Source: a virus. From it: a DNA stretch of 37,673 nt. Shown here piece after piece: positions 16,276-19,080 of the stretch (the stretch's first letter is position 1; each line of letters opens with the position of its first letter). A program made the position numbers and the translations under genes. The notes beneath the pieces were generated by a model, which searched no databases, was not told where the DNA came from, and saw nothing but the letters and a program-made list of their open reading frames with translations. The stretch spans positions 1 to 37,673 of the IMG/VR virus record IMGVR_UViG_3300045963_000083, one strand, 5' to 3'.

Positions 16276-18048
16276 TTAAGGGTGTCCGGAAGCGGAAGCA
16301 GAATATTGTCCAGGCGCATTATTTCCAGGCCAATTAGTATCTGCCCATATATCAAGAGAATATTGCGGGCCTGTATATGTTGGAGTAGTAGAGCATAATG
16401 TTGTTGTATTAACTATTGAAACATAACCGCCTTTTATAATGCATGCTTCTGCAAAAATATCTTTGTATTGTTGACCTGCATTGGCAGTAAAATAATATGT
16501 TGGCTTTGGCAATATTTGTTGCCAGTTTGGTGCCCATGTCTTACAGTTAGTAGTCGGTGATTGCAAATAAATATCAGCTGTATGAGTTAGGCCATTAAAG
16601 CAACTATAATATGCATTGGTATTTGTTCCTGGTGGAGAATTATAGTTTGCACTAGTTGTAGGTGATCCAATATAGGCAGTACAAGCCTGTAATGGTGTCA
16701 TACCTTGTTGTATCATTAAATATGATCCACTATTTACCCAGTTATTAATATGGATTTTTGATGTATAGGAAGTATCCGAGCATGACTTAGTAAAATTTCT
16801 CTCTGCGTACTTATTCATGGCATCACCATTAGCTGGACCATATCCTGTACATGCATCTTTTACAGGTCTGTTATTAAATAACTTAGTGCTATTAATGGTT
16901 GCAGCTGCTATTTCGTCAGGTGTCATCCAAGGATTTCTACGTAACATTTCAGATTTCATTCCGGTAACAGCAGCAGTTGAAAGCGATGAGCCGCTTATTT
17001 GTGTGTTATTTTGGCCTACTGTATGTTTTCCAACTGCAACTATATCAACAGCTATTGTTGCAAATTGTGGAGACAAATAACACGGTGAAACAGGATTTCC
17101 AAGCGGGTCAACTTCCCCAACAGTCGTTGAAAATGGGTTATCATATTTAGCCATATTAGCCCATGTTAACTCCCAATTTATAGAGCCATCAGGGTTTCTT
17201 TCATAATTACCAACGCCTTGAGTTATATCCATTCCGGCAATTCTAGCAGCTGCTATCATAGCATCAAGTTGCAATTGATTTAAAGTTGAGTCCATTGTCA
17301 AACTTAAATTTAATAATTGTACGCCTTTGCTTTTAAACCATTCAATAGCATCATATGGATCATAACGATAGTCGAAACCTTTAACATTAGCGTTAGAATA
17401 TTGAAGTATCGTGTTAACCATTTCGCTACCATGAAGTCCATATTCATTTGTAACCAAATTATTCAACATGTTTTGAAATGAATCATAACTAGGGAAAGGC
17501 GTTAATAATGTTTCAAGTTGACCATTTGTTCTTGCGGTATCATATGCGTTTGCTGGCATAGAATCATATATACCAACTACAGGCGCATTGACATCATAAC
17601 CATTAGATCCTACAGCAGGTGCTGGCAATCCTGTATTTTGAGCTACAGGAAGAGAGCTATTTATTCCTGTTTCTGTCAAAAGTCTAGGAGTTGTTTTAAC
17701 GCCAACAAATGATGAATTTAATCCAGAATTTATCCAAGTAGTTAGTCCAGTAATTAGTTCATTTTTTTCAGCAGTAGTTGAAAATTTATCATTTACTATG
17801 TCAGATATATGTAATGCAGGGCCTCCCCATGACGGAATAAATGTATAGTTTGCACATGTAAATGTATAGTTTATTTCTGGAACAGATAGCCTCATAAAAC
17901 TTAAATCTGATAGTGAACAGCCTTTTGCTGTCATTTCAGAAATTAGACTAGAATAGCTTGTTGATGAATTTGGTAACTTTACAATTACCTGGTTATCATC
18001 AGCATTAGCTATCCCACAAAATAGTATAAATAGTATTAAATATTTCAT
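16276..18048 (-). CDS. Secreted subtilisin-like serine protease (peptidase S8 family) with C-terminal Cys/Tyr/Thr/Asn-rich extension
   Basis: 590 aa. Signal peptide MKYLILFILFCGIANA|DD. Catalytic motifs in canonical order: VVGIYDS (Asp), LHGSEMVNTI (His), LLNLSLT, ITQGVGNYE (oxyanion Asn), SGSSLSTAAVTGM (Ser). Confidence 0.75.
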   Translation of the reverse strand: MKYLILFILFCGIANADDNQVIVKLPNSSTSYSSLISEMTAKGCSLSDLSFMRLSVPEINYTFTCANYTFIPSWGGPALHISDIVNDKFSTTAEKNELITGLTTWINSGLNSSFVGVKTTPRLLTETGINSSLPVAQNTGLPAPAVGSNGYDVNAPVVGIYDSMPANAYDTARTNGQLETLLTPFPSYDSFQNMLNNLVTNEYGLHGSEMVNTILQYSNANVKGFDYRYDPYDAIEWFKSKGVQLLNLSLTMDSTLNQLQLDAMIAAARIAGMDITQGVGNYERNPDGSINWELTWANMAKYDNPFSTTVGEVDPLGNPVSPCYLSPQFATIAVDIVAVGKHTVGQNNTQISGSSLSTAAVTGMKSEMLRRNPWMTPDEIAAATINSTKLFNNRPVKDACTGYGPANGDAMNKYAERNFTKSCSDTSYTSKIHINNWVNSGSYLMIQQGMTPLQACTAYIGSPTTSANYNSPPGTNTNAYYSCFNGLTHTADIYLQSPTTNCKTWAPNWQQILPKPTYYFTANAGQQYKDIFAEACIIKGGYVSIVNTTTLCSTTPTYTGPQYSLDIWADTNWPGNNAPGQYSASASGHP

Positions 18049-18057
18049 TATTTTACC

Positions 18058-18558
18058 TTAGTTAATAGGTTGAATATAGCCGTTTAAATTGCTAAGAGGT
18101 GCTATAATAGGTGCAATAGGAACAATTGAATTATCAGACTTATAACAGCCTATTGTTAGCGTTACTGTTTGAAGATTTGAAACTGAATTAGTAGTTCCAA
18201 ATCTTGTTACTGTATAAGTGGCATTATTTGTCAATGCCTTTACATTATTTGTGGTTCCGCCAATTCTAGGAACTGGTTTTATTCTTGAATTTATAGGATC
18301 AATCCAAGCCAAATAACTTATTTCGCCAGATAAGTTTGATGTATCTAAAGCCGTTTCTTTTGGAGTTACAGCAAGACCGCCAACAGCAGAAGGGCACCAT
18401 ACTTTATGTGTACGTGATAAAGATGAATTTAGAGGGGTAACAGCAATCTGCATCGTATATGTTGCAATACCTTGACCATCAATTGTTAACGTATCAGCAC
18501 TTACAACAAAACTTGCAAAAAATAAAGCGAACGATAATAGTAATTTATTCATTTTCAT
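18058..18558 (-). CDS. Small secreted protein, paralog B (two conserved Cys)
   Basis: 166 aa. Signal peptide MKMNKLLLSFALFFASFVVSA|D. Shares THKV, CP, (I/V)DPI..R, SN.Q.V, an (I/F)xC position and a VPI motif with 18607..19080. Confidence 0.7.
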   Translation of the reverse strand: MKMNKLLLSFALFFASFVVSADTLTIDGQGIATYTMQIAVTPLNSSLSRTHKVWCPSAVGGLAVTPKETALDTSNLSGEISYLAWIDPINSRIKPVPRIGGTTNNVKALTNNATYTVTRFGTTNSVSNLQTVTLTIGCYKSDNSIVPIAPIIAPLSNLNGYIQPIN

Positions 18559-18565
18559 ATTTCCT

Positions 18566-18591
18566 AAAGTAAAAGCCTGTAACCGACAGGC
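18566..18591 (-). terminator. Intercistronic hairpin / leaky terminator between the two paralogs
   Basis: On the - strand: gcctgt-cggtt-acaggc followed by TTTTACTTT, then AGGAAAT and the ATG of the next gene. Confidence 0.45.
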
Positions 18592-18606
18592 GGCGGTAAA
18601 GGTAAA

Positions 18607-19080
18607 TTATTTTTGAATTACGCTAACAATAGGAACGGTGGCAGGAGCAACAGTTCTGCAAACAAAACGGAATCTTACTTGTACATTGCTTAAAGTGTTT
18701 CCAGTTTCCAGAACTCTTACAGTAGTCGTCACAGGGAATGCAGGTCCTTGATTTCCTCCGAATCCGAATAAACCTGCATCACGAGTAATAGGGTCTACCT
18801 GATCCCAGTATGATAAAAAGTTAGCATGACCATCTGCGGTATCTTGTGATACTTGGCCGATAACTCTTGAACCCAATGGACATACAATACTAAAGTCTTG
18901 AGATTTAACCTTATGCGTAACGGGAACTGGACTAAATAAACTTGTAATTGTTATAGAGTCAGGATCAGCGTCAAGTGGATCATGTGCCCATGTGCTAGAA
19001 TCTGCTTTTGCGCCTTCTATAGCACAGGCAAATAAAAAGATCATCGCAGTCATTGCAAAGGCGTATTTGAAGTTTTTCAT
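18607..19080 (-). CDS. Small secreted protein, paralog A (two conserved Cys)
   Basis: 157 aa. Signal peptide MKNFKYAFAMTAMIFLFACAIEGAKA|D (AxA site; an atypical lipobox LFAC is also possible). GGAG RBS. Confidence 0.7.
   Translation of the reverse strand: MKNFKYAFAMTAMIFLFACAIEGAKADSSTWAHDPLDADPDSITITSLFSPVPVTHKVKSQDFSIVCPLGSRVIGQVSQDTADGHANFLSYWDQVDPITRDAGLFGFGGNQGPAFPVTTTVRVLETGNTLSNVQVRFRFVCRTVAPATVPIVSVIQK

Follow-up and report, generated by a model that had tools for sequence, protein, structure and literature searches.

The 37,673-nucleotide stretch analysed here (the window), positions 1 to 37,673 of IMG/VR virus record IMGVR_UViG_3300045963_000083, is a near-complete podovirus-like phage genome of ~37.7 kb. 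Three of its minus-strand genes form a cassette at 16276-19080 whose products are predicted to be exported by the Sec pathway: two small proteins of 157 and 166 amino acids (aa), hereafter p157 and p166, and a pre-pro-subtilase of 590 aa. Because about ten unrelated uncultured phages share a unit of this kind, which we found in no known genome, the cassette is probably a new envelope-acting phage tool. To our knowledge, and according to our literature searches, no exported protease has been described in the infection programme of a tailed phage; the searches returned no paper on phage-encoded exported subtilases and nothing comparable to the module. The partner family, the fixed two-gene module and its restriction to uncultured phages appear to be undescribed so far.

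The open reading frames (ORFs) are arranged as the original prediction had stated, as three co-oriented minus-strand genes with the leftward early genes on one side and the converging end of the late/lysis operon on the other: p157 at 18607..19080, a beta-rich member of a family with two conserved cysteines ("CP...C"); p166 at 18058..18558, its paralogue, modelled as a 9-strand beta sandwich; and the subtilase at 16276..18048, assigned from Pfam, Foldseek and profile alignment. The protease gene begins 9 nt past the second gene, with a Shine-Dalgarno sequence (SD) that overlaps the stop codon of the latter, and translational coupling of the two is likely from this spacing.

The subtilase and its small exported partners

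Three lines of evidence agree on the identity of the protease. Pfam Peptidase_S8 (PF00082) matches residues 231-403 only, just the C-terminal two-thirds of the catalytic domain, at E 2.9e-11 (43.7 bits, against a cut-off of 21.8). The five subtilase motifs quoted in the original prediction are indeed present in canonical order, at residues 157, 205, 245, 278 and 352, and a family profile aligns with subtilisin BPN' (E 1.2e-13, BPN' residues 24-245) with the D, H, N and S columns paired. The residues that align with the catalytic ones of BPN' are D162 (codon 17563-17565), H206 (17431-17433), N281 (17206-17208) and S355 (16984-16986), all on the minus strand, and their columns are kept in most family members (alignment A4). 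An AlphaFold2 model built on the same alignment, with a predicted local distance difference test (pLDDT) of only 68, matches 188 PDB chains at E <= 1e-3 in Foldseek; the best is subtilisin BPN' (1sua_A, E 2.2e-11, template-modelling (TM) score 0.68 on target), and pro-subtilisin E (3whi) aligns over 439 columns. A search of PDB sequences with the single protease sequence gave no match. To judge from sequence and model together, the 590-aa protein is a genuine pre-pro-subtilase with its catalytic set intact.

The protein can be divided into a signal peptide (aa 1-16), a putative I9-like pro-region (aa 17 to about 120 in the model), a disordered linker (aa 120-151, again in the model), the S8 catalytic domain (aa about 152-410), a Cys/Tyr/Thr/Asn-rich insert found in some family members only (aa 411-505), and a family-wide C-terminal domain (aa 506-590, 16279..16533, minus strand) ending in an SA[YS]xxGxP motif. 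The presence of an uncharacterised C-terminal tail, noticed at first reading, is confirmed. The propeptide suspected at the same time holds as an N-terminal pro-region, not as a Pfam I9 match: no I9 hit appears at E <= 1, and the assignment comes from the order of strands and helices in the model, a beta-alpha-beta-beta-alpha-beta unit at residues 20-118, together with the 3whi alignment and a natural gene split. In phage contig L013 (2891-4590), next to ribonucleotide reductase (RNR) genes, the subtilase homologue is encoded by two ORFs, one of 116 aa that resembles the pro-domain and one of 450 aa with the catalytic part. Both begin with a signal peptide, and the separate export of the shorter product supports the view that the N-terminal unit is an autonomous pro-domain.

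The overall plan is that of secreted pre-pro-subtilisins (MEROPS S8A, BPN'/E), with a signal peptide, an N-terminal pro-region, an S8 domain and the Asp-His-(Asn)-Ser order. Unlike these, the protease belongs to a tiny phage-borne family, shares only ~19% identity with classical subtilisins, carries additional motifs and is always accompanied by a small exported partner. Family-specific motifs in alignment A4 are INSTKxxNNxxxKDxCxG[WY]G and the C-terminal ending SAYxxGIP. An exhaustive HMMER search with the three closest sequences as query recovered 17 representatives among 1.84 billion cluster representatives, and all members looked up are metagenomic. A JGI contig of 37,751 bp carries a protease gene identical to that of the window. 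A word-indexed protein search with the protease found only the phage itself and two relatives; repeated with a 15-sequence profile, it added only generic S8 proteins and did not recover the distant family members. Pattern scans for the family were negative in IMG/VR, GTDB genomes and JGI metagenome contigs. NCBIfam offers nothing beyond generic subtilase similarity, and in PADLOC the sole match is to the generic 'subtilase' model, which aligns around the Ser region at E 1e-5; for the small proteins PADLOC gives nothing, and the cassette fits no anti-phage defence system defined there. Within its well-known enzyme family, the protease forms a new and divergent branch.

Each of the three proteins carries a predicted Sec signal peptide, as had been proposed from their first residues: a basic n-region, a hydrophobic core and an A-x-A or V-x-A site followed by D can be read in all of them, with cleavage expected after ...EGAKA in p157 and after ...FVVSA in p166. 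Such signal peptides are also present in homologues from other phages. Of the 59 phage ORFs, a crude hydrophobicity script picked out just 7 with a hydrophobic segment at the N-terminus, namely the trio, a holin-like protein, an Rz-like and an Rz1-like protein and a 40-aa membrane peptide. Cysteine counts in the mature proteins are even (2 in p157, 2 in p166 and 10 in the protease), which fits export to an oxidising compartment. We considered p157 as a lipoprotein, given the lipobox-like LFAC in its signal peptide, and rejected this, as homologues without the Cys keep the ...KA site before D.

The small proteins p157 and p166 are weak paralogues (29% identity, BLASTP E 8e-5). They have no relatives in Pfam, PHROG, NCBIfam, PADLOC or PDB sequences; against PDB chains, even at E <= 10, only unrelated proteins and no B subunit were returned. 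A profile search of 5.8 billion proteins retrieved only the small proteins of three phage lineages (the window phage, L001/L002 and L004). The AlphaFold2 model of p166, which rests on 6 sequences (pLDDT 67.8, predicted TM score 0.60), is an all-beta sandwich of ~9 strands with no Foldseek match at E <= 1e-3 in PDB or BFVD. The top fold matches are generic, jelly-roll-like and non-significant (TM < 0.45 on query); weak, equally non-significant ones include the periplasmic inhibitor PliG (TM 0.51 on target), Ena fibre subunits and a carbohydrate-binding module. The C-terminal tail of p166 is kept in sequence and disordered in the model, and p157-type proteins are devoid of it. We also compared the small proteins with the C-terminal domain of the protease and rejected the idea that they are homologous (hhalign probability 0.3%).

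A recurrent module in an exchangeable slot

Genomic context was read for ten protease lineages: the window phage, P0002 (L001-L003), P0003 (L004), P0022 (L009-L011), P0019 (L012), P0023 (L013), P0012 (L014), P0011 (L097), P0015 (L098) and P0016 (L099). Directly upstream of the protease, all ten encode a small signal-peptide protein of 149-178 aa with "CP" near residue 55-65 and a second Cys ~80 residues on. Two such genes are present in four lineages and a single one in five of the ten. This gene-neighbourhood comparison, which the original prediction had proposed, therefore yields a two-gene core found in 10/10 contexts. The prediction had also envisaged that the trio might be a common conserved virion-associated module: conservation as a module is what we find, association with the virion is not, and a sibling of the window phage does without the trio altogether.

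The carriers are very different from one another. The module lies inside a replication or nucleotide-metabolism operon in three of them: L004 encodes a family-A DNA polymerase and a primase-helicase around it, L009 an exonuclease, MazG, a PD-(D/E)XK protein, a primase and a DNA polymerase, and L013 an RNR. We found the module in no cultured bacterium or phage. An extra exported low-complexity protein is encoded upstream in four lineages: in L009, L013 and L097 it ends in a four-Cys domain, and in L098 it is a Gly/Ser-rich lipoprotein. Those of L009 (8479-9468), L013 (1430-2413) and L097 (1124-1828), 234-329 aa long, combine long Asn/Ser/Thr/Gln/Gly-rich low-complexity regions with a conserved four-Cys C-terminal domain; the L009 protein has no Pfam or PHROG match, and neither it nor the L097 protein has an NCBIfam match.

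The sibling without the trio is IMGVR_UViG_3300045919_000192 (L095/L105), whose flanks are close to those of the window (Rz 80%, a 189-aa protein 96% and an early 115-aa protein 91% identical). In place of the cassette, at L095 6252-7012, it encodes a 69-aa exported peptide and a 184-aa DUF7338/phrog_2143 membrane protein, so that both alternative cargos are envelope proteins; a literature search for DUF7338 found no paper. A terminator-like hairpin, a second hairpin, an AT-rich stretch, the SD and the first codons (..NFKYAF) are kept in the window, L001 and L095, and the similarity of the three leaders stops inside the region coding for the signal peptide. A scan of IMG/VR with the leader motif gave a single true match, this same sibling. 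Since a sibling with near-identical flanks has other cargo behind the same leader, the locus is a cargo slot, and the cassette is accessory and horizontally exchangeable.

Variation inside the cassette was assessed between the window phage and its close relative L001, whose flanking genes are 78-98% identical to those of the window at the amino-acid level. The protease is ~90% identical over residues 1-505 and drops to 31% over residues 506-590. For p157, identity is 96% in the signal peptide and 27% in the mature part. Overall identity of p166 is 45%: its first 16 mature residues are near-identical, its last ~25 identical, and its core falls below 30%. The DNA follows the same pattern, with conserved pieces 82-96% identical and variable pieces devoid of similarity, which indicates that the variable pieces were exchanged by allele replacement through recombination.

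The leader, the phage genome and the host

The leftward early operon (~22900 to 19388, minus strand) is closed, directly upstream of the cassette, by a terminator-like hairpin with a GC-rich stem and a T run (19175..19193, minus strand), detected by a terminator scan and kept in siblings L001 and L095. It is followed by a long leader hairpin or palindrome (19108..19173, minus strand), whose stem pairs the T run of the first hairpin with a downstream A run and which is followed by TTTTATTAATT. This second hairpin has an RNA fold z of -5.5 and, across the three phages compared, compensatory double changes at 6 of 22 pairs; its counterparts lie at about 588-650 in L001 and about 6960-7025 in L095, upstream of different cargos. 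It could be an attenuator, an antitermination target or an operator. Rfam has no family for the leader hairpin or the cassette region. The SD of the first cassette gene, GGAG at 19089..19092 (minus strand), belongs to the leader stretch kept in the three phages with different cargo. Between the leader and a 90-aa ORF (19388-19660) lies, at 19239-19362, an array of ~18.5 hexamers that read GGGTCT or similar on the minus strand and that include a higher-order duplication of 78 bp; both the array and the 90-aa ORF are absent from siblings L001 and L095.

Two further elements came out of the terminator scan, both on the minus strand. A hairpin with a T-rich tail separates genes 1 and 2 (18575..18591) and is possibly an attenuator; the surrounding stretch is 82% identical to L001 in nucleotides, whereas the adjoining coding cores have no DNA similarity. 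Another terminator-like hairpin (16253..16270) immediately follows the stop codon of the protease gene and separates the cassette from the late operon. No convincing sigma-70-type promoter was found upstream of the cassette, and its GC content (0.35-0.365, against about 0.33-0.43 elsewhere) does not set it apart.

Packaging, virion and lysis genes, including those for tail proteins and a tail fibre, occupy the plus strand. Among them are the terminase (at 30163), a 761-aa portal, the major head protein (132-1094), a GDSL-esterase tailspike (11461-13089), an endolysin (14052-14483) and an Rz-like gene (15051-15572). In the +1 frame of the latter is embedded an Rz1-like lipoprotein gene with an LTAC lipobox (15283-15501), an arrangement also kept in sibling L095. 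The end of the late/lysis operon holds two more ORFs, of 189 and 40 aa. The window (11188-13089) and L009 (17869-19622), a module carrier otherwise unlike the window phage, both have an 89-aa ORF ahead of a GDSL-esterase tailspike-like gene. On the minus strand, the leftward early operon includes a single-strand annealing protein (SSAP) at 20842-21498. Two paralogous small helix-turn-helix (HTH)-like proteins are encoded in the rightward early region, at 23432-23641 (MTIQELLKKIKQQGL...) and 24503-24700 (MTLQEALKKIRSTGL...), the former matching a PHROG transcriptional regulator at E 3e-6. The replication-initiator gene (25250-25981) contains a perfect (ATACAG)x5.5 repeat at 25644-25676, which encodes TDTDTD and may have a connection with origin iterons.

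When essentially all ORFs of at least 70 aa were scanned against PHROG, no integrase, excisionase or CI-type repressor came up, only small HTH- or Arc-like regulators, in keeping with the first impression of a phage devoid of lysogeny genes. The embedded Rz/Rz1-like spanin pair points to a Gram-negative host. Megablast with 4 kb and 25 kb of the window gave no DNA similarity to known phages, and in searches for a prophage or host the portal had no relative in 185,579 GTDB species genomes and the neighbouring 189-aa protein, scanned for host or lysogeny, had no match in metagenome contigs. The portal and a tail protein are closest, distantly (26-39%), to podoviruses of Brucella, Rhizobium and Sulfitobacter and to a spring metagenome phage. 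Matches of the SSAP and the helicase give no host clue, and no tRNA genes were found in the window. The best tblastn matches of the endolysin (~44-45% identity) are to Serratia, Acinetobacter and APSE phages, with similar scores, a similarity too weak for host assignment. APSE phages are toxin-carrying phages of the aphid symbiont Hamiltonella.

Possible roles of the cassette

The reading we favour, with somewhat less than even confidence, is that of an accessory protease complex, expressed early or midway through infection, which acts on the cell envelope through swappable, target-facing specificity parts and remodels it, for instance for superinfection exclusion or receptor removal. The cassette lies at the distal end of the early-left operon, and its genes would probably be transcribed with, or just after, the early genes, by read-through or antitermination of the structured leader beyond the early-operon terminator; early or middle timing is suggested by the position of the module among replication and nucleotide-metabolism genes in L004, L009 and L013. 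The three proteins would cross the inner membrane and form their disulfides in the periplasm, the protease would mature by removal of its I9-like pro-region, and mature protease and small proteins would act jointly on a cell-envelope protein. The catalytic domain and the conserved termini of the small proteins would be constant machinery; the small-protein cores and the last 85 protease residues, being the fastest-changing parts, would form the target-facing surfaces that determine specificity. A receptor or other envelope protein, once cleaved or masked, would no longer serve superinfecting phages, or progeny would be spared loss on debris.

In phages, the variable slots close to lysis genes are typically occupied by envelope proteins that serve exclusion or host modification; T5 Llp, lambda Bor and Lom and HK97 gp15 are examples. 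The cassette resembles such morons and exclusion proteins (T4 Imm and Sp can be added) in that it comprises envelope-targeted accessory genes in a variable slot, is present or absent between sibling phages and is bounded by terminator-like hairpins. It differs from them in including a protease, in having no promoter of its own that we could identify and no distinct GC content, and in that the module is also found inside early operons of unrelated phages.

Several points weigh against this favoured reading. No homologue of known function points to any specific target. Sec export delivers proteins only to the periplasm, not to the cell surface, and the GDSL-esterase tailspike of the phage points to a polysaccharide as primary receptor, so a protease would not destroy it. 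Two terminator-like hairpins precede the cassette, where no sigma-70-like promoter was found, so that early or middle expression in the window phage itself is a tentative reading, and in L012 the neighbours of the module are tail-fibre-like and lysis genes, not early genes. The structure models are of only moderate confidence (pLDDT ~68), and the hypervariable segments could stem from recombination between old alleles, with no role in specificity. A bolder version, which we think doubtful, is programmable envelope proteolysis: the hypervariable beta-sandwich proteins and the C-terminal domain would direct the subtilase to a host receptor or to a rival phage's periplasmic ejection machinery, giving superinfection exclusion by proteolysis. 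Our literature searches found no description of such a mechanism, which is not known for any phage.

The fixed position of the small gene, immediately upstream in 10/10 contexts and with likely translational coupling in the window, would also suit a dedicated protease regulator, either a periplasmic inhibitor or 'immunity' protein acting until release, or a chaperone or activator able to displace the pro-region; the true target would then lie elsewhere. We consider this rather unlikely. The conserved, disordered p166 tail resembles a docking peptide, the faint fold likeness to PliG goes in the same direction, and AprA/AprI, serralysin/Inh, staphopain/staphostatin and S1P/SPRING are precedents in which a secreted or compartmentalised protease is paired with a small dedicated partner that comes from its own operon and shares its compartment. 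In S1P/SPRING, the small partner displaces the inhibitory pro-domain (PMC11231238). Unlike the partners in these pairs, those of the cassette have no homology to known ones, are encoded upstream and evolve much faster than the catalytic domain: the 27-45% identity of the small proteins against ~90% for the catalytic domain is unexpected for an inhibitor directed at the active site, and the protease already has its own putative I9-like pro-region. The periplasmic inhibitor families Inh/AprI, ecotin and SSI gave no Pfam, NCBIfam or PDB-sequence match and no significant fold match, and the small proteins resemble no inhibitor family in sequence or, significantly, in fold. Regulation and targeting by the small proteins are in any case compatible, not mutually exclusive. 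Alternatively, the small proteins might be substrates, exported coat or fibre subunits trimmed by the protease for polymerisation or anchoring, the coat masking the surface or altering adhesion. Conserved termini around a variable core, as in p166-type proteins, are typically seen in subunits that polymerise, for example pilins and flagellins; type V pilins are primed through cleavage by gingipain, and the Bacteroidota type V pili likewise combine exported beta-sandwich subunits, with conserved termini around a variable core, and an exported protease. The hairpin after gene 1 could yield an excess of a 'major' subunit, as in pilus operons, and the modelled sandwich is jelly-roll-like, with Ena fibre subunits among its non-significant matches. 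Type V pili remain an analogy only, as they share no sequence or fold similarity with the cassette, have much larger subunits, and the phage host is apparently Gram-negative, with Rz/Rz1-type spanins. Moreover, no pilin or fibre subunit is significantly similar to the small proteins, the neighbourhood encodes neither an usher nor a sortase or secretin, p157-type proteins have no conserved tail and half of the lineages encode a single small protein, all of which makes a substrate role improbable.

Proximity to lysis genes in the window, and to lysis and tail-fibre genes in L012, would fit a protease stored in the periplasm and freed at lysis to digest S-layer, biofilm matrix or a proteinaceous capsule for progeny spread, with the small proteins as binding or stabilising partners. 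The enzyme is of the classical secreted-subtilisin type, and a carbohydrate-binding module is among the non-significant fold matches of its partner. We give this little credence, since the modules of L004, L009 and L013 are embedded in operons for replication or nucleotide metabolism, depolymerases with a role in spread are usually carried by the virion, and an enzyme freed by lysis needs no signal peptide. Least probable by far is an AB-type exotoxin against eukaryotic cells, with the subtilase as A subunit and the small proteins as receptor-binding B subunits, an analogy with SubAB and Stx that the original prediction had loosely drawn and that our results do not bear out. It is true that an exported enzyme stands beside small, exported, disulfide-containing proteins as in SubAB (an AB5 toxin), that the small proteins are hypervariable, and that toxin-carrying APSE phages are among the best endolysin matches, at only ~44% identity. 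Yet the solved proteins closest to the family are classical subtilisins: its profile, compared with PDB sequences, matches BPN', E, Carlsberg and mycosins best, SubA does not appear in the top 60, and no specific affinity to it is seen. The small proteins match no B subunit by sequence, SubB included, and their 9-strand beta-sandwich model, with no significant fold match, does not correspond to the OB fold of the pentamer-forming SubB/PltB family. Gene order is reversed, the small genes preceding the enzyme gene here and the A gene coming first in subAB. Finally, the carriers are uncultured, apparently lytic phages, several of which encode their own DNA polymerase or RNR, and the module was found in no cultured genome.

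The combination of conserved machinery and hypervariable surfaces has the look of an arms-race interface, and the conserved leader with its cargo slot offers a neat natural case of cassette exchange in phages. The recurrence of the module argues for a real, selected function in the envelope of the infected cell, one that lies outside current phage biology. If the true target were a receptor or the entry apparatus of a rival phage, the cassette would represent a new exclusion mechanism and also a source of specific periplasmic proteases.

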